DNA of 64,000 nt from an uncultured Verrucomicrobiae bacterium (GTDB lineage Bacteria > Verrucomicrobiota > Verrucomicrobiia > Limisphaerales > UBA11358). The notes beneath the pieces were generated by a model. The model saw only the letters and a list, made by a program, of their open reading frames with translations. It searched no databases and had not been told where the DNA came from. The position numbers and the translations under genes are program-made. Location of the stretch: NCBI GenBank assembly GCA_963830235.1, contig CAWHLR010000026.1, positions 4,792 through 68,791 on the forward strand, given 5' to 3'. Of the stretch, positions 12,770 through 53,128 are shown one piece after another. Each line of letters opens with the position of its first letter. Position 1 is the first letter of the stretch.

Positions 12770-12834
12770 AGTGGCACGGGCATCTTGCCCGTGCATTTCA
12801 AATTTTTATCGAACCGGCGGGACGCCTGTGCCAC
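12768..12834. repeat. REPIN doublet (GTGGCAC family)
   Basis: aTAGTGGCACGGGCATCTTGCCCGTGC faces GGCGGGACGCCTGTGCCAC. It has the same two half-types (ATCTT loop and TCC loop) as the element in the kinase gene. Confidence 0.8.
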
Positions 12835-12837
12835 CGT

Positions 12838-14652
12838 TCACGAGGCGAATTGCAATTCGTAAAGTTTTTGATAAACGCCGCCGCGCCGGACCAGTTCCGC
12901 GTGCGTGCCGGTCTCCACAATGCGGCCCTGATCCAGTACCACAATTAAATCCGCGTGCAGAATGGTCGAGAGGCGGTGCGCGATGCAAATCGTGGTGCGG
13001 GCCTTCATCAATCCGTCGAGTGCTTCCTGCACCGCCCGTTCGGACTCGGTGTCGAGCGCGCTGGTGGCCTCGTCGAGAATAAGAATCGGCGCATTGCGCA
13101 GCACGGCGCGGGCGATGGCGAGGCGCTGGCGCTGTCCGCCGGAAAACATGACGCCTTTTTCGCCGATCATGGAATCGTAACCTTTCGGGCTGGCCATGAT
13201 GAAATCGTGCGCGTTCGCGTGCCGGGCGGCGGCGATGATTTCCTCCTGCGTGGCGCCGGGCCGGCCGAGCTCAATGTTCCGGCTGACGGTGTCGTTGAAG
13301 AGGATGATTTCCTGGGTGACGACGGCCATCTGGCTGCGCAGATCGCGCGTGGTCACATCGCGAATGTCCACGCCGCCGATGCGAATGGCGCCGCGCGTGG
13401 GGTCGTAAAAGCGGAGCAGCAGATTGGAAAGGGTCGTTTTGCCGGAGCCGCTGGCGCCGACGAGCGCCACCATGCGGCCGGCGGGAACCGTGAGCTGGAT
13501 GTCCGTCAGCACCTCCTTGTCGCCGTAGGCGAAACAGACATGGTCGAAGCAAACCGCCGCGCCCGCCGCGCGCAGGGGCACGGGTTGGGCCGGTTCGCGC
13601 ACGGAATTTTCCATGGCCAGCAAATCGAAGACGCGCTGGCTGGCGGCGCGCGCCTGTTGCAACTGGCTCTGGACGCGGATGAGATTTTTGATGGGGCGAT
13701 ACATGAAGAACACCCCGATGGCAAAAGGAACAAATTTGACGGCGTGAGAACTCGGCTGAAAGGCGAAGTAGAGGCACATCAGGGCGACGCCGATGGCGGC
13801 GAGAAATTCATTCAGCGGCCCGGGAATTTCCTCCGAGCGGACGATGCGCATGCGGTGGCTGACAAAGCGTTGGGAAACCTCCTTGAATTGTTGAACCGCC
13901 TTTTCTTCGAGGTTGTAGGCCTTGATGATGCGGTTGCCGGTGAAGGATTCATGCATCACCGTTGACAGTTCGGAGTAACTGTTCTGGATGATGGTGCTGG
14001 ATTTGCGCACTTTGCGGCTGTAGATGACGATGGGGATGAGACAAACAGGAAAAATCAGCGCTATGACCAGCATGAGCTTGGCGTCCAAATACAACAAGCC
14101 CGCCAGGCAGCCCATTACCGTCACCGGATCCTTTACCACCACCGCCAGCGGCGCGGTGATGGTGTTCTGCAATGAGATGGTGTCCGAGTTGAGGCGCGAC
14201 ATCAGATCGCCGGTGCGGGACTGGACAAAAAAGCCGACGGAAAGGTTTTGGAGGTGGGCAAACAGCCGGGTGCGCAGGTCGGTGATGGCGCGGATGGCGA
14301 CCCATTGCAGGCAATACACATTCAGATACGCGAACAGGCCGCGCAGGATGAACATGAACGGGATCAGCAAAATCACGAGAATTTTCACCCCGGCAGTGGG
14401 CGCGGAGCCGGCTTGGGTAAACCAATCGGCGATCGTATGCGCAACGGTTTGCAACCAGGGTGACAGATTTTTCAGCACGGTCTCGGCGCTGTCCGCGCCT
14501 CCGCCGGTAAAGACCACCAGCCCCACCAGTGGAATGACCAGCATCAGCAGCGGGTCAACCAGGCCGCTCAGGAATCCAAATAAAATGCCCAAGGCCAGGC
14601 GCAACCGGTACGGCTTGGCCAGTCCCAGCAATCGGTGGAGAAATTCAATCAT
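12838..14652 (-). CDS. msbA: ABC transporter permease/ATPase, MsbA-like lipid exporter
   Basis: Six-TM N-domain, Walker A GASGSGKTT, signature LSGGQRQR, Walker B ILILDEATSALD. Confidence 0.85.
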   Translation of the reverse strand: MIEFLHRLLGLAKPYRLRLALGILFGFLSGLVDPLLMLVIPLVGLVVFTGGGADSAETVLKNLSPWLQTVAHTIADWFTQAGSAPTAGVKILVILLIPFMFILRGLFAYLNVYCLQWVAIRAITDLRTRLFAHLQNLSVGFFVQSRTGDLMSRLNSDTISLQNTITAPLAVVVKDPVTVMGCLAGLLYLDAKLMLVIALIFPVCLIPIVIYSRKVRKSSTIIQNSYSELSTVMHESFTGNRIIKAYNLEEKAVQQFKEVSQRFVSHRMRIVRSEEIPGPLNEFLAAIGVALMCLYFAFQPSSHAVKFVPFAIGVFFMYRPIKNLIRVQSQLQQARAASQRVFDLLAMENSVREPAQPVPLRAAGAAVCFDHVCFAYGDKEVLTDIQLTVPAGRMVALVGASGSGKTTLSNLLLRFYDPTRGAIRIGGVDIRDVTTRDLRSQMAVVTQEIILFNDTVSRNIELGRPGATQEEIIAAARHANAHDFIMASPKGYDSMIGEKGVMFSGGQRQRLAIARAVLRNAPILILDEATSALDTESERAVQEALDGLMKARTTICIAHRLSTILHADLIVVLDQGRIVETGTHAELVRRGGVYQKLYELQFAS

Positions 14653-26404: not shown

Positions 26405-28771
26405 ATGAAAAGGGTTCTGGCGCCAATCTTCTGGCTGCTGCTTGCACTGGCCGGCGCGGACGCCTATGCCACGCTGGCGTTTCGCCGGAGCGAGCCGGTC
26501 AATTCAGCCTATATTCTCATCGCGGCGGTCTGCACCTATGCCATCGGCTACCGGTTTTATTCCAAATGGATTGCCGCGCGCGTGCTCACGCTCAATGACC
26601 GCCGCGCCACGCCATGCGAAGTCCACGACGACGGCAAGGATTTCGTGAGAACGAACAAATGGGTTGTCTTTGGCCATCATTTCGCGGCCATTGCCGGGCC
26701 GGGACCGCTGGTCGGGCCGGTGCTGGCGGCGCAATTCGGTTACCTGCCTGGCACACTGTGGATTTTAATCGGCGCCGTGCTCGGCGGCACGGTGCAGGAT
26801 TTCGTCATCTTGTTTTGCTCGATGCGGCGGGATGGCAAATCGCTCGGCCAGATGGTCAAGGAGGAATTGAATTCGCCGGTTGGCTTCATCGCGGGGCTGG
26901 CGATCCTGGCCATTCTGGTGATTATGCTCGCAGTCCTCGCACTCGTTGTGGTCAAGGCTCTCGCGGAAAGTCCGTGGGGTATTTTCACCGTTGGCGCAAC
27001 CATTCCCATCGCGTTGTTGATGGGCTGTTACCTGCGTTTCTTGCGCGTCGGAAAGATTCTGGAAGCCTCAGCCTTTGGTGTTACAATGCTGCTGCTCGCG
27101 GTGTGGGGCGGCAAACTGGTCTATGAAAATCCGCACTGGTCGCAGGTCTTTGGACTGCGCGACCTCACGGTTGCCTGGGTCATCATTGGCTACGGCGTCA
27201 TCTCCAGCAGCCTGCCGGTGTGGCTGCTGCTCGCGCCGCGCGATTACCTCAGCACGTTCATGAAACTCGGCACCATCTTCGCGCTCGCCCTCGGCATCCT
27301 GCTGCTCCTGCCCAATTTGCAAATGCCCGCGCTGACGCAATTCATTGACGGTTCCGGCCTGGTCGTGGCCGGAAAGGTTTTTCCGTTCTGCTTCATCACC
27401 ATCGCGTGTGGCGCGATTTCCGGTTTTCACACGCTCATCGCCAGCGGCACGACGCCGAAACTCATCACTCGTGAAGGTTATGCGCGGCCCATCGGTTATG
27501 GCGCGATGTGCTGCGAATCCTTCGTGGCCATCATAGCGATCATTGCCGCCTGCACCCTGGACCCGGGCGTCTATTTCAGCATGAACGTCAAAGGCGATCC
27601 CGCCGCCACCGTGGCCCTGGTCGCCTCGCATGGTTTTCCGGTGACCACCGGCCAGATGGCTGCGCTGGCCCATGAACTCGGCGAGAAAACCCTGTTCGGT
27701 CGCACTGGTGGCGCGGCCACGCTGGCCGTCGGCATGGCGCACATTTTTTCCAAGGCCGTCAACGGCCGCTGGCTCGACCTCTGGTATCACTTCGCCATCA
27801 TGTTTGAGGCGCTGTTCATCCTGACCACGGTGGACGCCGGCACGCGCGTGGGACGTTATCTGATTCAAAGTGTGCTCGGCCGGGTTTGGAAACCCCTGGG
27901 CGACCCGAAATATTTTCTCACCACACCGGTGGCCGCCGCGTTGATGGTAGGCGCGTGGGGATATTTTTTGATTCAAGGCGTGCGTGATCCGCTCGGCGGC
28001 GTCAACTCGCTCTGGCCGCTGTTTGGTATTGCCAACCAGATGCTTGCCGCCATCGCGTTGTGCCTGGCCACAACCGTCATTTTGAAAATGCAGCTTGGAG
28101 CGTCGGCCTCCGGCACGGCACGAATCGAGAAGCCCGCCGTGCCGGAGGCCGACGCTCCAAAACATTTGCCTGCGCTCGCGCTCATCACGTTCATTCCACT
28201 GGTCTGGCTGGCAGCGGTAACATTCACGGCAGGAGTTGAGAAAATTTTCCATCCCGACCCGCGCATCGGATTTCTGGCGCAGGCGCAAAAGCTGGCTGAA
28301 AAAGCACCCGCCTTGCAAAGTGCGCTCACCAACGCGAACGCTGCGGGTGATGCGGCCGCAATTGACACCGCTCAAATAGCATTGCGCGCCAACCGCACGC
28401 TCCGGTTCAACAACCTTCTCGACGCCGCCGTGGCCGGAATTTTTCTGGCTCTGGTCATCGCGATTGTTCTGTTAAGCTTGCGCGAGTGGATTTTGCTGCT
28501 GTCGCGGCGCAAACCGGCGGTGTTGCACGAAACCGGGCCGGTCTGGCTGCCGGATTACGCCGTCGTGGAGGGCGGGCGCAAGTTCAGCGGCGCGGCCGGC
28601 GCCGCCGCCCTGGCCCTGGCGCTGGCGAAGGAATGGTCCGGCGAATCGCATCTGGAACGCGCGCAGCAGCAGCAAACGCAGGCGGTTTGCCAATGCCATT
28701 CCGCGAACGCACAGCAGGTTTACGTCGAAGCCACGGAACAGCGGTTCAACGGTGTGCGGCGGTGTTGTTAA
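26405..28771 (+). CDS. cstA: carbon starvation protein A family transporter with a YbdD/YjiX-like C-terminal tail
   Basis: Polytopic protein with CstA-like blocks (VVFGHHFAAIAGPGPLVGP, ISGFHTLIASGTTPK). The C-terminus ends in ...EQRFNGVRRCC. Confidence 0.85.
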   Translation: MKRVLAPIFWLLLALAGADAYATLAFRRSEPVNSAYILIAAVCTYAIGYRFYSKWIAARVLTLNDRRATPCEVHDDGKDFVRTNKWVVFGHHFAAIAGPGPLVGPVLAAQFGYLPGTLWILIGAVLGGTVQDFVILFCSMRRDGKSLGQMVKEELNSPVGFIAGLAILAILVIMLAVLALVVVKALAESPWGIFTVGATIPIALLMGCYLRFLRVGKILEASAFGVTMLLLAVWGGKLVYENPHWSQVFGLRDLTVAWVIIGYGVISSSLPVWLLLAPRDYLSTFMKLGTIFALALGILLLLPNLQMPALTQFIDGSGLVVAGKVFPFCFITIACGAISGFHTLIASGTTPKLITREGYARPIGYGAMCCESFVAIIAIIAACTLDPGVYFSMNVKGDPAATVALVASHGFPVTTGQMAALAHELGEKTLFGRTGGAATLAVGMAHIFSKAVNGRWLDLWYHFAIMFEALFILTTVDAGTRVGRYLIQSVLGRVWKPLGDPKYFLTTPVAAALMVGAWGYFLIQGVRDPLGGVNSLWPLFGIANQMLAAIALCLATTVILKMQLGASASGTARIEKPAVPEADAPKHLPALALITFIPLVWLAAVTFTAGVEKIFHPDPRIGFLAQAQKLAEKAPALQSALTNANAAGDAAAIDTAQIALRANRTLRFNNLLDAAVAGIFLALVIAIVLLSLREWILLLSRRKPAVLHETGPVWLPDYAVVEGGRKFSGAAGAAALALALAKEWSGESHLERAQQQQTQAVCQCHSANAQQVYVEATEQRFNGVRRCC

Positions 28772-28778
28772 AAAATTT

Positions 28779-29341
28779 GGAGGGCACTGCTTCGTCAGTG
28801 CCCCAACTAAATTAAATTGATGCGGGAATTGCAATCAAACGGAGAAATCGGGCGTAAACATCCCGTTCACCAGCCCGTTTTTCAACAGGGCAATCAAGCG
28901 GTTATTGTCTTTGTCACAGTCAATGCCCACCAACGAAAACCCATCCTTGCCAAAACAGATGTGGCAAACATTGTTCTCACCACGTGGGAGCAGGCTGACA
29001 CGTGGCTGGTTGGACGTTATGTCATCATGCCCGACCACATTCACTTTTTTTGCGCACCGCGTGATGTGTCGGTAAACTTGAAGCGTTGGATGAAGTTCTG
29101 GAAGAGCCAGGTTTCTTTGCGCTGGCCGCGATCCGCCGAACAGCCCGTCTGGCAGCTTGATTTTTGGGACACGCAATTGCGTCGCGGCGAGAGTTATTCG
29201 GAGAAATGGGATTATGTTTGTCGAAACCCCGTGCGAAAAGGCCTTGCGGCAAGGCCGAAAGATTGGCCTTATGCAGGCGAATTGAATGTCCTGTCCTGGC
29301 ACGACAAATGAAATTAGGGCACTGACGAAGCAGTGCCCTCC
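28779..29341 (+). mobile_element. RAYT-like unit: Y1/HUH transposase gene bracketed by perfect inverted hairpin REPs
   Basis: ggagggcactgcttcgtcagtgccc (28779-28803) and its exact reverse complement (29317-29341). Each is itself a hairpin (gggcactg/cagtgccc). Confidence 0.85.
28817..29311 (+). CDS. IS200/Y1-type (REP-associated-like) tyrosine transposase
   Basis: HUH motif MPDHIHFFCAP and Tyr motif WDYVCRNPVRKGL. About 160 aa. Confidence 0.75.
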   Translation: MMRELQSNGEIGRKHPVHQPVFQQGNQAVIVFVTVNAHQRKPILAKTDVANIVLTTWEQADTWLVGRYVIMPDHIHFFCAPRDVSVNLKRWMKFWKSQVSLRWPRSAEQPVWQLDFWDTQLRRGESYSEKWDYVCRNPVRKGLAARPKDWPYAGELNVLSWHDK

Positions 29342-29346
29342 AAAAT

Positions 29347-34174: not shown

Positions 34175-34681
34175 ATGAAAACCCCATTCGTCGAACTGCC
34201 GGTTTCCACGCGTGACGGTCAATTCGTCGCCCGTTATTCGGAAAAAGGACTGGCGGAACTGGATTTCCCCGCCAGTGGCAGGGCGGGGCTGCCGCCCCGC
34301 CAGGACGCGCGGCAGCGCGTCCCTGCCAAAATATCCCGCTGGCATCGCGCAACCGCCGCCGCGTTGAAGGCGGTTCTCGCCGGGCGCGCGGCGAAAACAC
34401 TGCCGCCGCTCGATTGGTCCGGCAAAACGGAATTTCAGAAAAGCGTCTGGCGCGCGCTGCGCAAAATCCGCCGCGGCCAGACCAAAAGCTACGGCGAAAT
34501 TGCCCGTGCCATTGGCAAACCGAAGGCCGTTCGCGCCGTGGGCGGCGCATGCGGCGCGAATCCAATCCCGGTTTTAATTCCGTGTCACCGCGTGCTCGCC
34601 GCGAATGGAAAAATTGGCGGTTTCTCCGGCGGATTAAATCGGAAGCGCGAACTGCTCGCGCGCGAAGGGGTTTTCTTGTAG
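34175..34681 (+). CDS. ogt: methylated-DNA-protein-cysteine methyltransferase
   Basis: IPCHRV active-site motif and GEIARAIGKPKAVRAVGGACGANP. Confidence 0.9.
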   Translation: MKTPFVELPVSTRDGQFVARYSEKGLAELDFPASGRAGLPPRQDARQRVPAKISRWHRATAAALKAVLAGRAAKTLPPLDWSGKTEFQKSVWRALRKIRRGQTKSYGEIARAIGKPKAVRAVGGACGANPIPVLIPCHRVLAANGKIGGFSGGLNRKRELLAREGVFL

Positions 34682-38538: not shown

Positions 38539-39066
<528 letters not shown>

Positions 39067-39073
<7 letters not shown>

Positions 39074-39963
39074 TCTTAATTAAAAAGTGGGCTTCCTTCG
39101 TGCGCTTCCCGCACACGGTCTTCGCGCTGCCGTTCGCGCTGGCGGCGATGGCTGTGGCGGCGCGGGACAATCGCGGCTGGCCGGGTTGGAAAACTTTCGC
39201 GCTGATCCTCGCGGCCATGGTCTGCGCGCGCACCTGTGCCATGGCATTCAACCGAATCGCCGATCGCAAATTCGACGCGTTGAATCCGCGCACGGCCAGC
39301 CGCCACCTGCCCACCGGCCAGATTTCTTTGTTCAGCGCCTGGCTGCTTTGCCTGTTGAGCGGCGTCGGTTTGATAGCGGCCAGCTTCTTTCTGAATCCGC
39401 TGTGTTTTTACCTCTCGCCCGTTGCGCTGGTGGTGATTTGTTTTTATTCACTGACGAAGCGGTTCACGGATTACACGCACGTTTTTCTCGGCCTCGCGCT
39501 CGCGCTCGCGCCCGTGGGCGCGTGGCTGGCGGTGAAAGGAACGAATGTTTCGATATTGGAAATCTTGCAAATGACCATGCTCGCGCTGGCGGTTATGCTG
39601 TGGCTCGTCGGCTTCGACATCATTTACTCGCTACAGGATTACGAGTTCGACAAATCGCATGGCCTGCATTCGCTCGTCGTGGCGTGGGGACAAAAGAATG
39701 CTCTCCAAGCGGCGTTTCTCGCGCATATGGTCATGTGCGGCCTGCTGCTGGCGTTCGGTTTGCTCTGCCGGTTTCGCATCGCGTATCTCGTCGGCTGGAT
39801 GATCATCGTCGGCTGCCTGGTGCTGGAACATTGGATTGCCCGCCGCCGCAGCCTGAACTGGATCAACGTCGCGTTCTTCCGGCTCAACGCCGTTGTGAGC
39901 GCCGTTTTTTTAATCGTGACGGTGGCGGAAGTGGTGTTTCAGGGTGGGTTTCGGCTGCGTTGA
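39067..39963 (+). CDS. ubiA: UbiA-family aromatic prenyltransferase
   Basis: Polytopic protein with the NRIADRKFD Asp-rich motif and a second DxxxD-like motif (DIIYSLQDYEFD). Confidence 0.8.
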
Positions 39964-39965
39964 TT

Positions 39966-40070
39966 GGGGCAAAACATCGAACATCCAACATCGAACGCTG
40001 AACATCGAACGCTTGTTGAAAATGCCCCGATTCGATGTTGGGAGTTCGATGTTCGATGTTCAGCGTTTCC
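39966..40070. repeat. GAACATC-heptamer inverted pair without cargo
   Basis: ggggcaaaacatcgaacatccaacatcgaacgctgaacatcgaacgc ... gccccgattcgatgttgggagttcgatgttcgatgttcagcgtttcc. Confidence 0.8.
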
Positions 40071-40529
40071 GATTAAGTATTTTGGTAACATCCGTCGTGA
40101 TTTGCTTCTGAGTTGGGTGTATGAGTGGCATCCAAGTGACCCCGTCAGACAACCCGAAATGTCCGCAATGCGGCACGCCGCTGCCGGCCGGCGCGCTCGC
40201 CGGCCTTTGCCCCGCCTGCCTGCTGAAACAGGGCGCGGCCGACGAAACCGCCACGGGCGGGCAGACGCCGCCGTTCCAGCCGCCATCCATCGCCGAACTG
40301 GCGCCGTTGTTCCCGCAGCTCGAAATTCTTGAACTCATTGGCAAGGGCGGCATGGGCGCGGTCTATAAGGCGCGGCAAAAGGAACTGGATCGCTTTGTCG
40401 CGCTGAAAATTCTTCCGCCGGGCATCGGCCGCGACGCCGCCTTCGCCGGGCGTTTCGCGCGCGAAGCCAGGGCGCTCGCGAAGCTGAATCACCCGGGCAT
40501 CGTCACGCTTTACGAGTTTGGGCAGGTCG

Positions 40530-40610
40530 GTAGTGGCACAGGCGTCCCGCCTGTGAGTGTCGGAGAAACCGCAAACGAGAAACTCACAGGCAAGATGCCT
40601 GTGCCACTAT
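40530..40610. repeat. REPIN doublet (GTGGCAC family) in-frame inside the kinase (81 nt)
   Basis: GTAGTGGCACAGGCGTCCCGCCTGTGAGT faces ACTCACAGGCAAGATGCCTGTGCCACTAT. It is translated as GSGTGVPPVSVGETANEKLTGKMPVPL. Confidence 0.85.
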
Positions 40611-40848
40611 TTTATTTCCTCATGGAATTCGTGGATGGCGTGAACCTGCGGCAATTGCTTCACGCCGGCCGCATCGCGCCGCGCGAGGCGCTGGCCATTG
40701 TGCCGCAAATTTGCGACGCGCTTCAGTTCGCGCATGATCAGGGCATCGTCCATCGCGACATCAAGCCGGAAAATATTTTGCTGGACTGCCGCGGCCGCGT
40801 GAAGGTGGCGGATTTTGGGCTGGCAAAACTGGTGGGGGTAGATGCGTT

Positions 40849-40909
40849 GGAGTTCCGCCTTCAGGCGGTTCCGACGCGACAAACCCGGACCGGCTGAAGC
40901 CGGAACTCC
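40849..40909. repeat. 61-nt palindromic element that disrupts the kinase frame
   Basis: ggagttccg-ccttcagg-cgg...ccggctgaagccggaactcc. The outer 9-bp arms are ggagttccg/cggaactcc, and there is an in-frame TGA inside. Confidence 0.85.
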
Positions 40910-42434
40910 AAACCCCCGCCTTGACCGCCGCCGGCAAGGTCATGGGCACGCCGAATTACATGGCGCCGGAACAGATGGAACATCCGGATGCCGTGGACAA
41001 TCGCGCGGACATTTACGCGCTGGGCGTGGTGTTTTACCAGATGCTCACCGGCGAACTGCCCGGCAAACAACTCCAGCCGCCGTCGTCGAAAGTTCAAATT
41101 GACGTGCGGCTGGATGAAGTCGTGCTGCGCGCGTTGGAAAAGAAACCTGAACTTCGCTACCAACAGGTCAGCGTGTTCAAGACGCAAATCGAAACGATCT
41201 CCCAAACTTCGCCGGCGGGAAATGCGCCGACAATTTCAGAAAAGCATCATCCAGCGCCCTGGAGCCAAGGGCTTGTTCTCGCGTCATTGTTGTGCATGGG
41301 TGCGTGCCTGTGGCCGGCGTTTGAGTTGTTCAAGCAGGGCGGCGGCTCCTCACTTCTGGTGGGATCGCTGTTGGTGGCGTTAACCATCGTGTGCGCTCTT
41401 TTTGCCATCCGTGGTTACACCATCACAGCCGATGCCATTCTCATTCACCGCTTGTTTTGGGCGACCCGACTGCCGCTCGCCGGACTGAAGTCTGCCCGTT
41501 TCGAAATAGCTGCCACGCGATGGGGCATTCGCGCCGGCAACGGCGGTTTCTTTTCCTGCACCGGATTCCGTTATAACCGACTGCTGGGTTTTCACCGTGT
41601 GTTTGTTACCGACGGAGCTCGAACCGTGGTGCTGCGCTACGCCAACCGCACCGTGGTCATTTCACCCGCCGACCCCGAAGCCTTTGTCCGCGACCTCGCC
41701 ATTCCAATGAAGGCAATGACGTGGGATGAGCAAGCACGCGTCAACGAAGCGGAGTGGCAAAACCCGGTCAATTGGACCGGACCGAAATGGCTGTCGGTTT
41801 ATTTCAGCAAACGCGATTCGCGCGCGTGGGTGCCGAAACAAATTCCCGCTTTGGGCTCGACGGTAAACCTGGGAAATCCGCAAGGCGCGTTCGCGCTGCT
41901 GGCCATCGTCAGCGCAATCATCATTGCCTTGGTTGTCCTGGCCGTTGTGCTGCTGGCGGTTTTCAAACCTGTCCACCCCAATTCGATCAGGTCGGATTAC
42001 ATCGGCCAAACCTGGTTTCCCAAAGGCGATTCCATTGAAATAACCTCGGTTGAGCGGACCGAGAAGCGGATGGTGGTCAAAGGCCATTACAATCTGGTAA
42101 GCCATGATCAGGCGACGCTGGCGCTTTACATCACTTCGACCAATAAAAATCTTCCAGAAGACAAGGAACAGCGGATGCAAATTTCCAAAGGACGCGGCGA
42201 TTTTGAATTGGTTCATTCCCATGTTATTCCCGGTCTTCCGCATGTGGTGATGGATGCCAACGGAGAAAATATTGCCAACCTGTATTTTGGAACCCAGGCC
42301 GAATCGCTGGAAGAAAGCAAGGCCAGTTGGAACTCGGGTGCCAACCAAATTGGTGAGGAGCCGGGCAAAATGGCGGCGCCCCTCAAATTCCCCCGCCGAT
42401 CAAAACCATTGTCCTGACGCGGGCGACGAATCAG

Positions 42435-43262
42435 GTGGTCGGTGCATCGAATGATGTGCGAACCGTGACTCTGTGGACCGATTCGATGGTTCAGCCGGGT
42501 GAAACTTTTTCGGCTCTGGTGAAACTTGGCGACGGACAACAGATTGACATGGGCTCGGAGTTATTCATCAACTGGGAGCCGGATACCATCGGGACTTCTT
42601 CTGCTTTTACATGGTGGTTTGGCAACCCCAGTTTTGCACAGGGATTCGGCCAGAATGAAGCCGAAGCCGCAGTCGCCCAATTGCGCGACTGGAGTGAAAA
42701 GCCACTCACACTTGGTTCCGGAAATCCGCTGGAATTGTTTTCGGTAACGAACAAGTCCGGCGAAATCATGGCCGGGTATCTTGAGTTCAAGCGCAACATG
42801 CCGACCCCGCCGGTGGATTCGCCTGCCGCAAAAGTTCAGGCCATCGTTCACATCCGCGGATTCTCCACATTTTTTCCAACTCTTAATTACAGCGTTAAAT
42901 TGCCACCAGGCTATGCTTTGCGGGCAACTGCCAATCGGGGTCGGGTTCAGACAAGCGTTGCTAAAAGGCCTCCGATGATCGGTGATTATCGTTCTGACTG
43001 GTCGGATGTCTCCCGGCCCAAGCCATCATTTCTGCAACCCGGTCAACGCCCTCAACTTCAACCTCAAAGAATGGAAACGTTCGCAGAGCGCGAAGCACAA
43101 CGCGCAGCTTTGGAGTCGCAGTTTCAAGCACTGCAAGACCAGGGTCCGATTCCGGTTTTCCTCGGCGAACCAAAATTATTATTCTCAACCACCAACAACA
43201 CAGGCGAGGTATATCAGGGCTTCCTTGAACTGGTCGGTCCACCCACTCCGACAAATAACTGA
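42435..43262 (+). CDS. hypothetical protein with an internal two-fold repeat
   Basis: PLELFSVTNKSGEIMAGYLEFK and PKLLFSTTNNTGEVYQGFLELV repeat motifs. GTG start taken from the ORF track. Confidence 0.5.
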   Translation: MVGASNDVRTVTLWTDSMVQPGETFSALVKLGDGQQIDMGSELFINWEPDTIGTSSAFTWWFGNPSFAQGFGQNEAEAAVAQLRDWSEKPLTLGSGNPLELFSVTNKSGEIMAGYLEFKRNMPTPPVDSPAAKVQAIVHIRGFSTFFPTLNYSVKLPPGYALRATANRGRVQTSVAKRPPMIGDYRSDWSDVSRPKPSFLQPGQRPQLQPQRMETFAEREAQRAALESQFQALQDQGPIPVFLGEPKLLFSTTNNTGEVYQGFLELVGPPTPTNN

Positions 43263-43263
43263 T

Positions 43264-44013
43264 TTGACCTCCGAACATTCAACACCAGCCTCGACCGCGC
43301 CGGGCGACATTTTCGCCACGACGCACTGGACGGTCGTCCTCGCGGCGGGTAAGCGTTCGACGCCCCAATCCGATTTGGCGCTGGAGGAATTGTGCCGTGC
43401 CTACTGGTTTCCGCTTTACGCCTACGTCCGCCGGCGTGGGCACAACAAGGAGGACGCGGAGGATTTGACCCAGGCTTTTTTCGCACGATTCCTGGAGAAA
43501 AATTATCTCGCCGGCCTGAGCGCTGAGCGCGGACGTTTCCGCGCCTTTCTGCTCGCGTCGCTGAAACATTTTCTCGCCAACGAATGGGACAAATCGCGCC
43601 GCCAGAAACGCGGCGGCGGCATGACGCCGCTGTCCCTGGACTGGCAGACCGCCGACACGCAATTTCAAATCGCCGCCACCGCCGGGCCGAGTCCCGACAA
43701 GGCGTTCGACCGCGAATGGGCCGTGACCCTGCTCGCCAAGGTCATCGAACGGCTACAGGCCGAGTGCGAGACTGATGGTCGGGGGAAACAGTTCGCGGAG
43801 TTGAAAATCTTTCTCACCGCCGGCAAGGGCGAGTTGTCCCACACTGACGCCGCCAAAGCACTGGATATGGATGAAGGCGCGATCCGCGTGGCGGTGCATC
43901 GCCTGCGAAAGCGCTACCGGCAACTGCTCCGGGACGAAATCGCGCAAACCCTGGCTGATTCGGCGGACGTGGATGAAGAGATGCGCGCGCTGTTCGGCGC
44001 GTTTGCTCAATAA
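43264..44013 (+). CDS. ECF-type RNA polymerase sigma factor (kinase-associated type; TTG start inferred)
   Basis: TTHWTVVLAAG...LCRAYWFPLYAYVRRRGHNKEDAEDLTQAFF...AIRVAVHRLRKRYRQLL. Confidence 0.75.
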   Translation: MTSEHSTPASTAPGDIFATTHWTVVLAAGKRSTPQSDLALEELCRAYWFPLYAYVRRRGHNKEDAEDLTQAFFARFLEKNYLAGLSAERGRFRAFLLASLKHFLANEWDKSRRQKRGGGMTPLSLDWQTADTQFQIAATAGPSPDKAFDREWAVTLLAKVIERLQAECETDGRGKQFAELKIFLTAGKGELSHTDAAKALDMDEGAIRVAVHRLRKRYRQLLRDEIAQTLADSADVDEEMRALFGAFAQ

Positions 44014-44081
44014 ATTTCTTTTGTCAAAGACGTGCGTGCGAACATTTGTGAAACGATTTAAATCGCGGAGCGACGGACGAT

Positions 44082-44232
44082 AATAGCCCACGGTAAAACC
44101 GTGGGTTCAACGAACAAAATAAAACCAGCCCCGGCAGGGGCGGCAGAAAACATACGAACGGTTTTATCTGTCGCCCCTGCCGGGGCTTGTGATTTTTGTC
44201 CGACCAACCCACGGCTGACGCCGTGGGCTACT
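44082..44232. repeat. three-hairpin structured element, copy 2
   Basis: agcccacgg-taaaa-ccgtgggtt; agccccggcaggggcggcaga...tctgtcgcccctgccggggct; aacccacggc-tgac-gccgtgggcta. Confidence 0.8.
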
Positions 44233-44370
44233 TTCTGCCGCCTCCGGCGCTGAACGCGCAATTTGCCAAGCGGCAACTGACTTGGTTCCGCGCCCGGAAA
44301 ATCCAGAGTGGATTGAATTGAAGCCGGAGGAATCGCTGGAAAGATGTGCGCAGAAAATTTGTGAAACGAT

Positions 44371-44907
44371 TTAACCTTGTTTCTCTTGTGCATCGTCTCC
44401 TGAAAGAAAATGAGGATTAAGCTCGTTCAGGATTTCTTCCCGTATTTGTTTGATATTTACCTTCAAATTCTTGAGAACCATTGTGGCCACACCTTTACCT
44501 TCAAGCAGTATTCCAAGAAGAAGATGTTCAGTTCCGATGTAAGTGTGATTAAGCAACTTGGCATCGTTTCTCGCCATTTTGAATACTTCTTTCGCTCGCG
44601 GCGTAAATGGAAGAGTGAAAGTCACTTTTCGATCTGGTCCGCGCCCGTCTATTTTTTCAACCCCAATGCGAACTTTTTCAAGATTTAACCCTAATTTGAT
44701 AAGCACATTGGCGGCTACGCCATTTCCCAATTTAACAAGGCCAAGCAAAATATGTTCAGTACCAATAAAATTGTGATTCAAACGCAGCGCCTCTTCGTTT
44801 GCAAAAACAATTGTTTGTTTTGCGCGTGGCGTAAAATTTTCCAAAAGTTCATGCGAATTTGATTTGCGAGTTTTTAACTTCGCCAAAAATTTTCTGAACC
44901 AATTCAT
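44371..44907 (-). CDS. stand-alone Clp N-terminal (double Clp_N repeat) domain protein in an AT-richer segment
   Basis: Two repeats: FTPRAKQTIVFANEEALRLNHNFIGTEHILLGL and FTPRAKEVFKMARNDAKLLNHTYIGTEHLLLGI. No ATPase domain is present. Confidence 0.75.
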   Translation of the reverse strand: MNWFRKFLAKLKTRKSNSHELLENFTPRAKQTIVFANEEALRLNHNFIGTEHILLGLVKLGNGVAANVLIKLGLNLEKVRIGVEKIDGRGPDRKVTFTLPFTPRAKEVFKMARNDAKLLNHTYIGTEHLLLGILLEGKGVATMVLKNLKVNIKQIREEILNELNPHFLSGDDAQEKQG

Positions 44908-44923
44908 CGGAAAAAATTTGATT

Positions 44924-45609
44924 TTAACTTTCCCTCGGTCGTTTGACGACGACGTCAATTTCCGCCTTGTTCTTGGCGATCATGTTCGCGGGCAGGATGC
45001 CGCGCCAGAAGACATTCGGGTAAACCACCGCGCCGCGCCCGAGGATGCTGCCGGGGTTCAGCACGGCGTTGCAGCCAACTTCCGCGCCGTCGCCGAGCAG
45101 CGCGCCGAACTTCCGCAGGCCGGTGTCGAATGGCACGCCGTCCACTTCCACCTCAATGTTGCCGGGGAACAGTTTGTAGTTGGAAATTTTCACCCCCGCG
45201 CCGAGATGCGCCTTGTGGCCGAGAATCGAGTCGCCCACGTAATTGAAATGCGGCACCTGCGCGTTGTTGAACAGCAGCGAGTTTTTCAGCTCGCTGGAAT
45301 TGCCGACAACGCAGCCGTCGCCGATGATGACGTTTTCGCGGATGTAGGCGTTGTGGCGAATCTGGCAGCCCGGCCGATGATGGCCGGGCCTTTGATCATG
45401 GCGCCGTCCTCGACGACCGTGTCCGGGCCGATGAAAACCTGTTCGCCGATGAAGGCCCGTCCCTCGCAGCGGTTGTGCAGGGCGGGTTTCAAATTGGCGG
45501 CGAGGTAGCTCTTGATTTTTTTGAGCGCGTCCCAGGCGAATTTGCCGCCGTCGAAAATGGCGGCGTGTTCGGTCTGGCCCAGGTCAAACAAGTCGGCTGG
45601 CGTGAACAT
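44924..45609 (-). CDS. left-handed beta-helix (hexapeptide-repeat) transferase; frame break near 45370
   Basis: ORF 45286-45609 ends junk-like after GPAIIG. The third frame continues PGCQIRHNAYIRENVIIGDGCVVGNSSELKNSLLFNNAQVPHFNYVGDS and joins ORF 44924-45256. Confidence 0.65.
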
Positions 45610-45657
45610 GGCGGCAGGCTAGGCGAAACGGCGGCGGCGGAAAAGCGAAATGGGCAT

Positions 45658-45695
45658 GGGAATTTAGTCATTAGGGTTTGGGAATTAGTCATTCC
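45658..45695. repeat. ATGACTA-family repeat units (TTAGTCATT x2)
   Basis: gggaatttagtcattagggtttgggaattagtcattcc. Confidence 0.7.
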
Positions 45696-45751
45696 GCAGG
45701 GCGGCATGGGCTTGCCATTCGTTGCGGCGGGGGTATTTTTGCGGCGGGCGC

Positions 45752-45827
45752 GCCCCCATAGCTCAAATGGATAGAGCAGCGGTTTCCTAAACCGTGGATT
45801 CCCGTTCAATTCGGGATGGGGGTACCA
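45752..45827 (+). tRNA. tRNA-Arg (CCU)
   Basis: 76-nt cloverleaf: acceptor GCCCCCA/TGGGGGT, anticodon loop TTCCTAA, T arm TCCCG-TTCAATT-CGGGA, encoded CCA. Confidence 0.85.
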
Positions 45828-49249: not shown

Positions 49250-49974
49250 TGGCTGAAGCGAGTTCATCACCGGAAAAAACGGGCCCGCCGGCCAGGAAAA
49301 GAAAATCCGGCGTGATTGTGCCGCACCAGGCGAAGTGGCATCAACGCATCGGCGCGTTTTTGGTGTTCATTTCGTTGCGCACGCTCATGGCCACAGTGCG
49401 CTGCCGTCTGCGCAACCCCTCGGAATTCCTGGCGCCCAACGCCCCCGGCCCGGTGATTGTTTGTTTCTGGCACAACCGGCTGGCGTCCTGCATCAAAGTT
49501 TATGAGAGCTTTCGCAAGCCGCACGCGTCCACCAGGGGCATGGCGGCGCTGATCAGCGCCAGCCGGGACGGCGCGTTTCTCACGGGCATTCTGGAATGGT
49601 TTGGCGTGCAGGCGGTGCGCGGATCCAGCAGCCGGCGCGGCCCGCAGGCGTTGCTCGAACTCACCACCTGGGCCGAGCGCAACTATGACCTGACCATCAC
49701 GCCGGACGGCCCGCGGGGGCCGTGCTACCAGTTTCAGGAGGGCGTGATGTCGCTGGCACAGGTAACGGGTTTGCCGGTGATGCCGATTGCGTTCAACGTG
49801 AATTGGAAACTGCGCGTGAAAAGCTGGGACCGGTTTCAGATTCCGCTGCCCTTTGCCTGTTGTGAAGTCGTCGTCGGCAAGGTCATGCGCGTGCCAGCCG
49901 AAGCCACGGACGCCGAACGCGAGTCGCTGCGTCAACAGCTTGAAGCCGACCTGCGCGCCATTTCCGGCGATTGA
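49249..49974 (+). CDS. DUF374-type lysophospholipid acyltransferase family protein
   Basis: CFWHNRL...ISASRDGAFLTGILEWFGVQAVRGSSSRRG...ITPDGPRGP. Confidence 0.7.
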   Translation: MAEASSSPEKTGPPARKRKSGVIVPHQAKWHQRIGAFLVFISLRTLMATVRCRLRNPSEFLAPNAPGPVIVCFWHNRLASCIKVYESFRKPHASTRGMAALISASRDGAFLTGILEWFGVQAVRGSSSRRGPQALLELTTWAERNYDLTITPDGPRGPCYQFQEGVMSLAQVTGLPVMPIAFNVNWKLRVKSWDRFQIPLPFACCEVVVGKVMRVPAEATDAERESLRQQLEADLRAISGD

Positions 49975-50001
49975 AATTCGGAGGGGCGTCACGGTTCTTG
50001 A

Positions 50002-50033
50002 CACTCAACTTCCAACCCTCAACCCTCAACTCC
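50002..50033. repeat. CTCAACC-type heptamer array just upstream of the priA start
   Basis: cactcaacttccaaccctcaaccctcaactcc, preceded by TTGACA at 49998-50003. Confidence 0.6.
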
Positions 50034-50035
50034 GC

Positions 50036-52978
50036 ATGATTGCCCGCGTCAGTCTTGAAATCGCGCTCCGCAAGGAGTTCGATTATTTGATTCCGCCCGG
50101 ATTGGCGGGGCAAATCGAGGTGGGCAGCCGCGTGCAGGTGCCGTTCGGCCCGCGAAAAATTTTAGGCTGCGTCACCGCGCTCGCCGAGGAATCGGCTCAC
50201 ACCAATCTCAAACCCATTTTGAAAGTCATCGGGGCGCAGACGCTTGTCACGCCGAAGGTTCTGAAGCTTGCGCGCTGGATTGCCGAGTACTACTGCTGCG
50301 CACCGGAAACCGCGTTGAAATCCGTCTTGCCCGAGGCCGTGCGCAAGGAGGAATCCGGCTGGCGCGAGCGGCTGTTTGTCCGCGCGCTGCCGGTGAGCGG
50401 CGAATTTCCGAAGCTGCCGAAACGCCAGCAGGAAGTCTGGAACATCATCGAGGAGCGACGCGAGCTGCCATTGTCGGAACTGGTCGAACTGGCCGAAACC
50501 ACCGCCGCCACCATCCGCAAACTCGAAGACCGCGGACTGCTTGAGGTCGCCCCGCAAATTTCCGAACGCGATCCGTACGCCCGCGAACACATCCTGCCGT
50601 CGCAACCGCTCCCGTTGAACCCGGCACAGGCTGCCGCGCTGGAGAAGATTGAGACGGCTATGAATGGCCGTTGTAGCACCCGCGTCCCGCGGGTGGAGGC
50701 GGGCGTCGCGCCCGCCTCTCGTCCGACAGTCAAGCCCGGCCCGATATGGGAAACCACCGCCCGCAAACGCAGCCTGCCGCATTTTGAAATTCCGGGTTTT
50801 ACCTATCACGTCACCTGGCAAACGCAGGACAAACTGATTCTTTCGCCCGAAGCCCGCGCAAAGACTTTGGAAGCCTGCCATTTCTGGCACGGGAACAAAA
50901 TCAAATGTTACGCCGCGTGTGTAATGCCCGACCATGTTCATTTGCTGATTCAACCTTTGCCGGTTCAGGAAGCCGGGAAAGAAGGCGTTCATCCGCTCTC
51001 GGAAATTCTTCACAGCATCAAATCATTTTCCGCCCATGAGGTGAACAAGGCCATGAAACGCAGCGGTCCGGTCTGGATGGATGAATCGTTTGACCGGATG
51101 ATCCGTTCGGAGGCCGACTTGCACAAGACGTGGGATTACATCTGGAACAATCCGCGCAGGATTGGATTGGTTGGACCAATGGAGGAATATCCTTACCTTT
51201 GGACGCCAACCGCACCCGACACACCCCAAGGTGTCCGGCGCGACGCCGGACACGACCCGCGGGACGCGGGTGCTACACCACAGACATCGGACGGCGCAAA
51301 GTCATCTCAAGTTTTCCTGCTTCATGGAGTGACCGGCAGCGGCAAAACCGAGGTTTATCTGCAAGCCCTCGCCCACGCGCTCGAACAGGGCAAGGGCGCC
51401 ATTGTGCTTGTGCCGGAGATTTCGCTCACGCCGCAGACCGTCGAGCGGTTTAAAGCACGTTTCAGCTCCGGCAAACTCCAGACGCTTGTTGCCGTGCTGC
51501 ACAGCCACCTGTCCGCCGGCGAACGTCACGATGAATGGCACAAAATCCGCCAGGGCCGCGCACGCATCGTCATCGGCGCGCGCTCGGCGATTTTTGCGCC
51601 GGTTGAACCGCTCGGCCTCATCATCGTGGACGAGGAACACGAGCACTCTTACAAGCAGGAGGAGGCGCCGCGCTACCACGCCCGCGACGTGGCCATCATG
51701 CGTGGCCAGATGGAAAACGCCGTCGTCGTGCTCGGTTCGGCCACGCCGTCGCTGGAAAGTTATTACAATTGCAAGAAGGGCAAATTCACGCTGCTCGAAC
51801 TGCCGGAGCGCGTGGACGACCAGAAAATGCCGCACGTCCGGGTCGTGGACATGCGGCAAGCCGCGTCCCAGCAGCGCGGAAAGGAAGGCATCCCGATTTT
51901 TTCGCCGCAACTCAAGGAAGCCATCACCCAGCGGCTCGAACGCGGCGAGCAGACGATTTTGTTTTTGAACCGGCGCGGTTATTCGACGTCGCTGCAATGC
52001 CCGAAGTGCGGCGAGGTTGTTCAGTGTCCGAATTGCAGCCTCGCGCTCACGTTTCACCGGCAGGAACAAAAGCTCGCCTGTCACATCTGCGGCCACGTCG
52101 CGCCCGTGCCGTCGGTTTGCCCAAATGCGAAATGCAAAAACCCGGCGATCCGTTTTGCCGGCACGGGCACGCAGCGGGTCGAGGAAACGCTTGCCAAGCT
52201 TTTCCCGCAGGCGCGCATCAAGCGCATGGACGCCGACACGATGAAACGCAAGGACGATTACCGGAAGGTGCTCGGCGATTTCCGCACGGGCAAAACCGAC
52301 ATCCTCGTCGGCACACAGATGATCGCCAAGGGGCTGCATTTCCCGAACGTCACGCTCGTCGGCATCATTTACGCCGACCTCGCGCTGCATCAGCCGGATT
52401 TTCGCGCGGGCGAACGGACCTTCCAACTGCTCACGCAAGTCGCCGGACGGGCCGGGCGCGGGGATGTCGAGGGCGAGGTGTTCGTGCAGGCATTCGCGCC
52501 ATTTCATCCGGCGATTCAATATGCGCGCCGCCACGACTTCACCGGCTTTTATGAACAGGAAATTGAATTCCGCGAGCAACTGAAATATCCGCCCGTCAGC
52601 CGCGTGGCGTTGCTCACGCTCAAGGGCCGCAACGAAGACAAGGTGAAATTTAGCGCCGAACACCTGAAACGGGAGCTGGAGAAAAATCTTGTGGCGGCGG
52701 TCTGTGACCGCCGCCAATCAGATGAAAAGAATGCAACTGCAAAAAACAAGGATAGTGCGGCGGTCACAGACCGCCGCTACAGCTTCGGTGATTTAATCAT
52801 CGCCGGTCCGGCGCCGGCGCCGTTGCTGCGCGCGGAAACTTTTTATCGGTACCAGATCATGCTGCGGACGCGCGCGATGAGCAAATTGAGCCAGGCCCTG
52901 GCAAAAATCATTGGGACGCTTGCCCTACCGGATGACGTGACCCTGGCGGTGGACATTGACCCGGTTAATTTGGGGTAG
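50036..52978 (+). CDS. priA: primosomal protein N' (replication restart helicase) carrying two in-frame insertions
   Basis: N-terminal ARVSLEIALRKEFDYLIP...VQVPFGPRKILG, Walker A HGVTGSGKTEVY, DEEH box IIVDEEHE, and the Cys cluster CPKCGEVVQCPNCSLALTFH...CHICGH. Confidence 0.9.
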   Translation: MIARVSLEIALRKEFDYLIPPGLAGQIEVGSRVQVPFGPRKILGCVTALAEESAHTNLKPILKVIGAQTLVTPKVLKLARWIAEYYCCAPETALKSVLPEAVRKEESGWRERLFVRALPVSGEFPKLPKRQQEVWNIIEERRELPLSELVELAETTAATIRKLEDRGLLEVAPQISERDPYAREHILPSQPLPLNPAQAAALEKIETAMNGRCSTRVPRVEAGVAPASRPTVKPGPIWETTARKRSLPHFEIPGFTYHVTWQTQDKLILSPEARAKTLEACHFWHGNKIKCYAACVMPDHVHLLIQPLPVQEAGKEGVHPLSEILHSIKSFSAHEVNKAMKRSGPVWMDESFDRMIRSEADLHKTWDYIWNNPRRIGLVGPMEEYPYLWTPTAPDTPQGVRRDAGHDPRDAGATPQTSDGAKSSQVFLLHGVTGSGKTEVYLQALAHALEQGKGAIVLVPEISLTPQTVERFKARFSSGKLQTLVAVLHSHLSAGERHDEWHKIRQGRARIVIGARSAIFAPVEPLGLIIVDEEHEHSYKQEEAPRYHARDVAIMRGQMENAVVVLGSATPSLESYYNCKKGKFTLLELPERVDDQKMPHVRVVDMRQAASQQRGKEGIPIFSPQLKEAITQRLERGEQTILFLNRRGYSTSLQCPKCGEVVQCPNCSLALTFHRQEQKLACHICGHVAPVPSVCPNAKCKNPAIRFAGTGTQRVEETLAKLFPQARIKRMDADTMKRKDDYRKVLGDFRTGKTDILVGTQMIAKGLHFPNVTLVGIIYADLALHQPDFRAGERTFQLLTQVAGRAGRGDVEGEVFVQAFAPFHPAIQYARRHDFTGFYEQEIEFREQLKYPPVSRVALLTLKGRNEDKVKFSAEHLKRELEKNLVAAVCDRRQSDEKNATAKNKDSAAVTDRRYSFGDLIIAGPAPAPLLRAETFYRYQIMLRTRAMSKLSQALAKIIGTLALPDDVTLAVDIDPVNLG
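50673..51276 (+). mobile_element. RAYT-like Y1/HUH transposase module with inverted GTAG-REP flanks, embedded in-frame in priA
   Basis: GTAGCACCCGCGTCCCGCGGGTG (50673-50695) faces ACCCGCGGGACGCGGGTGCTAC (51255-51276). Inner hairpins sit at 50696-50718 and 51231-51253. The segment encodes PDHVHLLIQP and WDYIWNNPRRIGL. Confidence 0.8.
52691..52780. repeat. REPIN doublet (GCGGCGGTC-TGT-GACCGCCGC family) in-frame inside priA (90 nt)
   Basis: GTGGCGGCGGTCTGTGACCGCCGCC faces GCGGCGGTCACAGACCGCCGCTAC. It is translated as VAAVCDRRQSDEKNATAKNKDSAAVTDRRYS. Confidence 0.85.
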
Positions 52979-53082
52979 CACAGGCCTCCGGCCTGTTGTT
53001 TCGTGCGTCGCGCCCGAAACCGTCGCGGGACGAACGCCTATTTCACATTTGCCCGATTGCCTGCAACCTGTGTCGCCCAACG

Positions 53083-53128
53083 GAATTCGGCGGGACGCCG
53101 AATTCAACCCGCGAGACGCGGGTGCTAC
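53083..53128. repeat. bipartite REP, same family as the priA RAYT flank
   Basis: gaattcggcg-gga-cgccgaattc followed by ACCCGCGAGACGCGGGTGCTAC. It overlaps the 3' end of the gene at 53125-53520. Confidence 0.8.

Follow-up and report, generated by a model that had tools for sequence, protein, structure and literature searches.

A permissive surface turn of a functional Ser/Thr kinase appears to have received an in-frame insertion of a GTAG-type REPIN, which would be translated there as a disordered loop; we put the probability of this reading at roughly 0.7. The element (REPIN-1) lies at positions 40530–40610, plus strand, of the window, by which is meant the whole 64-kb stretch of DNA analyzed. 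It is an 81-nt head-outward doublet of two REP hairpins with GTAG/GTGG heads, and in the kinase frame it encodes the peptide GSGTGVPPVSVGETANEKLTGKMPVPL. In the history proposed here, a non-autonomous GTAG-type REP doublet mobilized by a RAYT tyrosine transposase would have landed in the codons of the beta4-beta5 turn, in an ancestor of the lineages of the window and of two related loci, L001 and L083. It may have survived there because its length kept the frame (+72 nt net), because it entered in the one frame per strand that meets neither an internal TGA nor the TAG contained in the GTAG head, and because the resulting peptide, rich in Gly, Pro, Ser, and Thr and probably disordered, would be carried on a solvent-exposed turn far from the catalytic cleft. 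At present it would be transcribed and translated within a functional 1047-aa receptor-type kinase as an essentially tolerated passenger, and the beta4-beta5 and activation loops of such kinases seem to have been filled repeatedly by different REP families, in orthologs and paralogs alike.

Sequence, folding, and reading frame of REPIN-1

REPIN-1 starts and ends with the letters GTAGTGGCACAGGCGTCCCGCCTGTGAGT...ACTCACAGGCAAGATGCCTGTGCCACTAT. The sequence is exactly as quoted in an earlier reading of this DNA from its letters (the sequence-only reading), which had called it an 81-nt REPIN, and both folding and matches to other family members confirm the palindrome. The left REP arm (40531–40561, plus strand; TAGTGGCACAGGCGTCCCGCCTGTGAGTGTC) forms its own hairpin, CACAGGCG-tcc-CGCCTGTG, as does the inverted right arm (40579–40609, minus strand; CACAGGCA-aga-TGCCTGTG). 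Each arm follows the scheme GTAGTGG-CACAGGCG-tcc-CGCCTGTG, with an 8-bp stem and a 3-nt loop, and the right arm departs from the left in one compensated stem pair, making the element a heterodimer. Over their 31 nt the arms are 87% complementary, and the spacer between them is 17 nt. The whole strand folds into a single long hairpin, at −30.1 kcal/mol as DNA (z = −8.9 relative to shuffled sequences) and −54 kcal/mol as RNA (z = −9.1), and the fold was matched by none of 200 shuffles. An Rfam identity was considered and discarded, as only miRNA-precursor models matched and these were below threshold (26–28 bits, with 57–268 required), which describes a generic long hairpin.

Both arms agree with the description of a GTAG-type REP unit, a 20–40-nt imperfect palindrome with a terminal GTAG or GTGG, and the two units in inverted orientation produce one long hairpin. 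An extragenic location is found for the copy at 12768–12834 (below) and not for REPIN-1, which is inside an ORF. Intragenic members of the GTAG family are documented, in the passages of Di Nocera et al. (2013; PMC3733652) dealing with them, so the coding location does not exclude REP membership.

In the kinase frame (ORF 40121–40897), REPIN-1 stands between LYEFGQV and FYFLMEFVDG, where the sequence-only reading had placed the insert. Two of the six frames through it are free of stops, the kinase frame and the equivalent one on the reverse strand; among the others, one is closed by the TAG of the GTAG head and another by a TGA from CTGTGAGT. The integrity of the ORF and selection on its flanks (below) suggest that REPIN-1 is translated. 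Tryptic peptides that span the insert include, for example, LNHPGIVTLYEFGQVGSGTGVPPVSVGETANEK and MPVPLFYFLMEFVDGVNLR.

Other copies of the REP family

The REPIN-1 family is represented in the window by two doublets, the second of which (12768–12834, minus strand) is in the opposite orientation and has a different spacer. At up to three mismatches, GTGGCACRGGCRTCYYGCCYGTG has four matches in the window, namely the two halves of each doublet, where 0.01 would be expected by chance. The reverse complement of 12764–12840 aligns arm for arm with REPIN-1, the spacer alone differing, and the REP stems of the copies differ by compensated pairs. This copy occupies the 68 nt that separate two minus-strand genes, filling the space from the Glyco_transf_9 start codon (CAT at 12767–12769) to the ABC-transporter stop codon (12838). 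The earlier suggestions that the two-half element is also present between genes here, and that it is non-coding at one locus and coding at the other, are both borne out. The mechanically called ORF of the GT9 gene (11774–12796, minus strand) begins within the intergenic REPIN, as MHGQDARAT..., and its true start is likely MKILALQ at 12769. REP-derived N-terminal extensions of this type can contaminate protein databases.

A further doublet of the family is present in the related locus L003, and a DNA-pattern scan of metagenomes gave at least 149 matches to the REP core in at least 120 contigs, in many unrelated contexts. Among the 149 matches listed, 48 are in open frames, i.e., with at least 60 codons open on either side, and all ten of the in-frame matches tested lie in Pfam-supported proteins. 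The REP-carrying metagenomic proteins are AlaRS, Mfd, UvrD, UvrC, PBP1A, CarB, DPP-IV, FGE (FGE-sulfatase), Type ISP, and another Ser/Thr kinase, in which the insert is again in the activation loop. Their REP peptides are of the types GTGV(P/S)PV, TG(K/G)(M/T)PVP, and H(G/R)QDARAT; GKMPVP and HGQDARAT, which the sequence-only reading had proposed as footprints to search for, thus have counterparts of both types in real metagenomic proteins. Gly/Pro-rich peptides such as GTGVPPV, TGKMPVP, and HGQDARAT can be taken as annotation footprints of REPs.

The dispersed copies bear directly on the simplest alternative, that the insert is an ordinary, lineage-specific kinase loop which is palindromic by chance and no mobile element. 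Variable beta4-beta5 loops are known in many kinases, and to that extent a loop of this kind would be unremarkable. However, the same two-arm element is found between genes at 12768–12834 and again in L003, the REP recurs in unrelated contexts in the metagenomic contigs just described and flanks a RAYT gene in locus L196 (below), and a fold z-score of about −9 is hardly what chance would give. We regard this alternative as extremely improbable and, given the dispersed copies, effectively refuted.

Further palindromic doublets, of several REP families (TTGGAGCGCCGG..., GTAGCACAGGCC..., GCGGCGGTC..., and others) lie at 4627–4703, 28095–28160, and 44117–44197, with more at 34282–34322, 52692–52777 (near the 3′ end of the priA ORF), and 52973–53128. 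The source genome is very REP-rich.

RAYT genes and their flanking REPs

Two RAYTs were called in the window with the NCBIfam equivalog model NF047646 (cut-off 80 bits). RAYT-2 (28817–29311, plus strand) scored 99.4 bits; it has nothing in Pfam at E ≤ 0.001 and was identified via NCBIfam. RAYT-1 (50717–51232, plus strand), which is in frame within the priA ORF (49853–52978), scored 87.2 bits and also matches Y1_Tnp at 31 bits. Both are flanked by inverted REPs. Those of RAYT-2 (28776–28813 and 29307–29344; TTTGGAGGGCACTG...) belong to the TTGGAG-headed family, the same as that of a second element in the kinase gene (REPIN-2, below). Those of RAYT-1 (50672–50712 and 51237–51277; GTAGCACCCGCGTCCCGCGGGTG...) are a close variant of the REPIN-1 REP, with GTAG-CAC vs. 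GTAG-TGG-CAC, so that a cognate pairing of RAYT-1 with REPIN-1 is no more than plausible. An exact correspondence is seen in the metagenomic locus L196: the exact GTGGCACAGGC REP of the REPIN-1 family (AGTGGCACAGGCATCCTGCCTGTG) there flanks a RAYT with 44% identity to RAYT-1. Via L196, a RAYT (Y1/HUH transposase) flanked by the same REPs is found for this family, and the REP-RAYT association that defines REPINs holds for it. These arrangements suggest that REPIN-1 was itself inserted by a RAYT.

The REP-RAYT-REP unit in priA is 606 nt (202 codons) long and lies between the LNPAQAxALxxI motif and Walker A (GVTGSGKTEVY); the stretch read shows no separate ATG for it. At the same site, RAYTs are also present in eight PriA proteins whose overall identity to the window segment is 53–85%. 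Their RAYTs are of two subtypes, and the HUH motif (MP[DN]HVH) and Tyr motif (YIxNNP) are invariant in them. In L196 (3998–7984, minus strand) a 1329-aa carB ORF (carbamoyl-phosphate synthase large chain) has an in-frame Y1_Tnp/RAYT domain at aa 628–704, flanked by GTGGCACAGGC REPs at 5757–5780 and 6475–6498, giving a second example of a housekeeping gene with a RAYT inside it. A literature search found no paper on RAYTs inside host ORFs, the priA case included, and the in-frame RAYT in priA is potentially more novel than the kinase finding.

The host kinase and the insertion site

The host gene encodes a Hanks-type Ser/Thr kinase, with the motifs GKGGMGAVY, VALK, HRDIKPEN, DFG, and YMAPE, and is divided among three ORFs in the window. 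The first (40121–40897, plus strand; PF00069, 113.9 bits) runs from a Zn-ribbon-like CPxC..CPxC N-terminus and the Pkinase N-lobe through DFG, ending at a TGA created by a frameshift. The second (40921–42417, plus strand; PF00069, 36.9 bits) comprises the C-lobe from the APE motif onward, TM segments, and bPH_5, and continues the first in protein P0126 of contig L082. The third (42435–43262, plus strand) is the C-terminal domain, split off at 42362 (GGG vs. GGGG) and contiguous with the rest in P0126.

The best solved relative is M. tuberculosis PknB (E = 2e-35). The alignment has a gap of ~20 residues at the insert, between beta4 (IVAVYDTGE) and beta5 (YIVMEYV) of PknB. In an AF2 model of the 258-aa ORF, which is of moderate quality (mean pLDDT 62) because the ORF is truncated, strands at residues 129–136 and 163–169 are joined by coil, with pLDDT below 50 at residues 141–156. 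Alignment and model together place the REPIN-1 site in the beta4-beta5 turn, at the back of the N-lobe and 6–7 residues ahead of the gatekeeper Met. Of the earlier assignment to the N-lobe/hinge region, the N-lobe stands, but the hinge does not. The description as a 27-aa insert likewise holds in part, there being 27 codons, but the net gain over orthologs with an empty site is 24 residues. A loop at this point is likely to be structurally neutral.

REPIN-2 and the kinase frameshift

REPIN-2 (40846–40911, plus strand) is a 66-nt palindrome with TTGGAG heads in the activation loop, between DFGLAKLVG and LTAAGKVMGTPNYMAPE. Neither it nor the kinase frameshift was mentioned in the sequence-only reading. 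Here, 236 nt downstream of REPIN-1, the window kinase passes from frame 2 to frame 1, with a TGA at 40895–40897, and the Pkinase domain is split between two ORFs at Pfam profile positions 148/156. A cluster look-up found P0126, on contig L082, to be a single intact 1047-aa kinase ORF that reads through both REPINs (...LAKLVGVDAFGVPPSGGSDATNPDRLKPELQTPALTAAGKVMGTP...), REPIN-2 giving FGVPPSGGSDATNPDRLKPELQ in frame. Over 39075–45791 of the window, its identity to L082 is 99.35%. Within genes the two differ by just three indels, all of them 1-nt homopolymer shortenings in the window: TT for TTT at 40846–40847, which throws the kinase out of frame 2 and into frame 1; GGG for GGGG at 42362; and CCC for CCCC at 45368. 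Each breaks an ORF that is intact in L082, the kinase twice and a hexapeptide-repeat gene (45368) once. Together with record names of the form contig_N, which suggest a long-read assembler, these ORF-breaking shortenings indicate that the kinase frameshift is probably an assembly error rather than a sign of a pseudogene; a long-read assembly in which some indel errors remain is the probable source of the window. A programmed frameshift or split kinase at REPIN-2 was also considered and was rejected, since all three indels are ORF-breaking homopolymer shortenings. Other apparent pseudogenes in the window deserve caution, as homopolymer errors in long-read assemblies can give such genes the look of pseudogenes.

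Were the kinase instead a pseudogene broken by REPIN-2, REPIN-1 would be untranslated and its open frame a leftover. The window ORF does stop within REPIN-2 and resume in another frame, a second shift follows at 42362, and the L001 kinase is also frameshifted, inside its own, different activation-loop REPIN. However, the ORF is intact both in L082 and in L083, where the ortholog has 695 aa and a third kind of activation-loop element, and the indels between the window and L082, one of them in an unrelated gene, have the signature of long-read error. Comparison of the window with L001 (dS ~0.4–0.5) gives dN/dS values near 0.1 before as well as after the break: 0.09 in the N-terminal portion of the kinase, excluding the REPIN, and 0.10 in the C-lobe downstream of the frameshift. 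These values point to strong purifying selection on the kinase codons flanking REPIN-1, and the kinase gene has therefore stayed functional during essentially all of the divergence between the window and L001. Nearly all related kinases are also in frame across the activation-loop site (below). A pseudogene thus seems a distinctly unlikely explanation, and insertion into a functional kinase is preferred.

The activation-loop element differs in all three lineages (window/L082, L001, and L083). Enlarged activation loops are found in 60 of 82 related kinases, and those inspected in syntenic orthologs are mostly REP-like palindromes.

Empty, filled, and refilled sites in related kinases

A protein search gave thousands of close verrucomicrobial kinases, and a genome scan 80 loci; in 86 kinase copies, the lengths of both loops were taken between anchored conserved peptides that bracket them. 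The beta4-beta5 loop has its basal length of 15–21 nt in 50 copies and is longer in the other 36, by 12–186 nt, with all 86 in frame. The interval in the window kinase is 90 nt, in keeping with the statement in the sequence-only reading that kinases normally have only a few residues here. For the activation loop, the basal length is 33–42 nt (22 copies) and the longer loops (60 copies) have at least 66 nt, with 80 of 82 in frame. Strong palindromes, with GTAG at each outer end, account for many of the longer inserts at beta4-beta5, and several unrelated REP families are represented among them.

The gene order UbiX-UbiA-kinase-ECF sigma is kept in at least 16 loci, and these kinases are therefore orthologs. 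Among them, the beta4-beta5 site is empty (a 6-residue loop) in L011, L021, and L025 and filled by the same REPIN in L001, L082, and L083, each time with the DNA palindrome, and the remaining syntenic orthologs have other elements there, including different REP families. Homologous kinases with the same insert and no palindrome, which the sequence-only reading had named as counting against it, were not found in this set. The spread of empty, identically filled, and differently filled sites indicates that the REPIN-1 insert is, on comparison of the orthologs, a derived state. The insert has also been stable in evolution. The palindromes at the beta4-beta5 site have decayed in L002, L003, and L009, where the kinase gene persists, and in the first two a decayed left arm (SSAGVPPAS and SNVSILPAS, respectively) is followed by a translated heptamer array. 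When empty and filled sites were compared, no target-site motif or duplication was evident beyond a host Gly codon, GGT, which often provides the G of the GTAG head. A kinase family with empty, filled, and refilled sites at two loops is a natural experiment on insertion tolerance and might be used as such.

Possible constraint within REPIN-1

Between the window and L001, no synonymous differences are found inside REPIN-1, where ~6.4 would be expected. Its two changes are both non-synonymous, one in the spacer and one in the outermost stem extension. Across the window, L001, and L083, none of the 27 third positions in REPIN-1 is variable, whereas 73 of 212 flanking third positions are (Fisher one-sided P = 2.6e-5), and the peptide has 2 substitutions in 27 residues. 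REPIN-1 is the least variable 81-nt stretch in the first 717 nt. Recombination between lineages is unlikely to be behind this, as divergence is back within 12 nt on both sides. The pattern indicates that some constraint or homogenizing process acts on the nucleotide sequence of REPIN-1, and the deficit of synonymous change is the only result here not predicted for a purely tolerated or neutral passenger.

The palindrome could, then, be under selection as DNA or RNA in addition to being translated, as a dual-coding element rather than a mere passenger; roles of this sort would include binding a RAYT or another protein, pausing replication or transcription, and forming a hairpin that affects mRNA stability or pauses translation. 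The invariant third positions, the missing synonymous differences, the low variability with its sharp limits, and the confinement of the only two changes to the spacer and outermost stem extension would all fit, as would the stability of the RNA hairpin. Yet the comparison comprises three independent lineages, and the sequence of a functionless element could also stay unchanged, through concerted evolution with other genomic copies or through repair of one arm templated by the other. The decayed palindromes of L002, L003, and L009, and the orthologs with none at all, also argue against it since the gene persists in them, as does the free replacement of the activation-loop element between the very lineages compared. 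We hold selection of this kind to be a tentative possibility, and one compatible with the origin proposed here for REPIN-1. A broader proposal, which is speculative and somewhat doubtful, would make REPIN-1 a dual-constraint element whose hairpin is kept, in an essential segment of a working kinase gene, by selection or RAYT-dependent homogenization, with both kinase loops as preferred landing pads and REP turnover as a source of regulatory-loop diversity. If this were true, REP/RAYT systems would be a source of protein innovation and not only tolerated junk. The absence of synonymous change in REPIN-1 opens the way to a direct test of nucleic-acid-level selection on REPIN hairpins.

In kinases, the beta4-beta5 and activation loops are both hot spots of regulation, and the 24–27-residue loop and the activation-loop insert might instead have been kept as a new regulatory or docking surface. 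Near-identity of the peptide in three lineages would agree with such an exaptation, and related peptides outlast the decay of the palindrome in L002 and L003. It is nevertheless improbable, as orthologs in the same synteny lack the insert or have unrelated peptides from other REP families, and the peptide is of low complexity and predicted to be disordered. That both changes in REPIN-1 are non-synonymous and none synonymous also points to constraint on the DNA and not on the protein. A specific function is also made less likely by the occurrence of the same REP peptides in unrelated enzymes, and Di Nocera et al. (2013) likewise argue against one in their treatment of intragenic elements. An in-frame REPIN insertion tolerated in a functional kinase is still the preferred reading.

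Comparison with known systems

In the passages of Di Nocera, De Gregorio, and Rocco (2013; BMC Genomics 14:522, PMC3733652) that survey them, GTAG-tagged REPs are reported from Proteobacteria, Cyanobacteria, and the PVC superphylum, with GTGG heads in one Opitutus terrae family and head-to-head heterodimers with 20–100-bp spacers. According to the same passages, they are mostly intergenic, with some wholly inside known ORFs, more than half being dimers or groups that encode 20–30 aa; certain ORFs have received two insertions, and the elements are most numerous in O. terrae. Intragenic inserts are argued there to be probably neutral when in loops. REPIN-1 resembles these dimers in its GTAG stem-loops, its head-outward heterodimeric arrangement, its intragenic position and length in the 20–30 aa range, its link to RAYTs, and its verrucomicrobial source. 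The likeness is one of description and not of a sequence match to a numbered family. The host here is a Ser/Thr kinase, whereas those passages stress replication and repair genes.

The Rickettsia palindromic elements (RPEs; Ogata et al., 2000), as summarized in the relevant parts of PMC3733652 and PMC3184786, are also palindromic repeats inserted in frame in probably functional genes, with members of the same element family in non-coding DNA. By those descriptions they differ in being ~105–146 bp long, AT-rich, of the CGTC type or unrelated, and found in an obligate intracellular alphaproteobacterium, with no dedicated transposase known. REPIN-1 (81 nt, GC-rich, GTAG-headed) is therefore set apart from RPE-1 to RPE-8, as far as the published descriptions go, and is best seen as an analogue. 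With the REPIN/RAYT system (Bertels and Rainey, 2011; Park et al., 2021, PMC8049555) it shares the inverted-REP doublet forming one long hairpin, dispersed copies, and a REP-flanked RAYT gene in the same genome region, but classical REPINs are described as extragenic and REPIN-1 is coding. In-frame MITEs (Delihas, 2007, 2011, PMC3184786) are similar as small non-autonomous repeats with open frames, within or at the ends of protein genes, but have terminal inverted repeats of IS origin and lengths of 100–400 bp, and are not GTAG-headed hairpins mobilized by Y1 transposases.

As judged from the passages cited, an in-frame translated REP dimer is thus no new phenomenon, having precedents in Di Nocera et al. 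(2013) and Ogata et al. (2000). What appears to be new is the kinase host, the orthologous empty, filled, and replaced sites at two loops, the synonymous-site deficit, and the recurrent colonization of the same two kinase loops by many REP families; a literature search found no paper on REPs in kinase loops. In REP-rich phyla (Verrucomicrobiota, Planctomycetota), “extragenic” palindromes would routinely turn into protein sequence, and insert-rich loops in conserved enzymes should be checked for a mobile-element origin before they are interpreted functionally.

Heptamer arrays in and near the kinase gene

In some of the kinases, the beta4-beta5 loop includes translated tandem heptamer arrays (CTCAACC or CGACCCT type), which are read in frame, for example as PSTLNSQP. 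They are found at L002:6403–6477, L003:6376–6450, L027:6367–6414, and L007:6367–6516. Such arrays keep the frame only in multiples of three units, and they resemble arrays flanking IVP genes, as in the window: inverted AACATCG heptamer arrays at 38541–38571 and 39035–39071 lie on either side of a 23S_rRNA_IVP gene (38600–39031; four-helix bundle, PF05635, 43 bits). A second inverted heptamer pair (39973–40010 and 40031–40061), with no gene between its halves, immediately precedes the kinase. The L001 IVP gene lies elsewhere, between epimerase and amidase genes, and this difference in position suggests that the IVP cassette is mobile.
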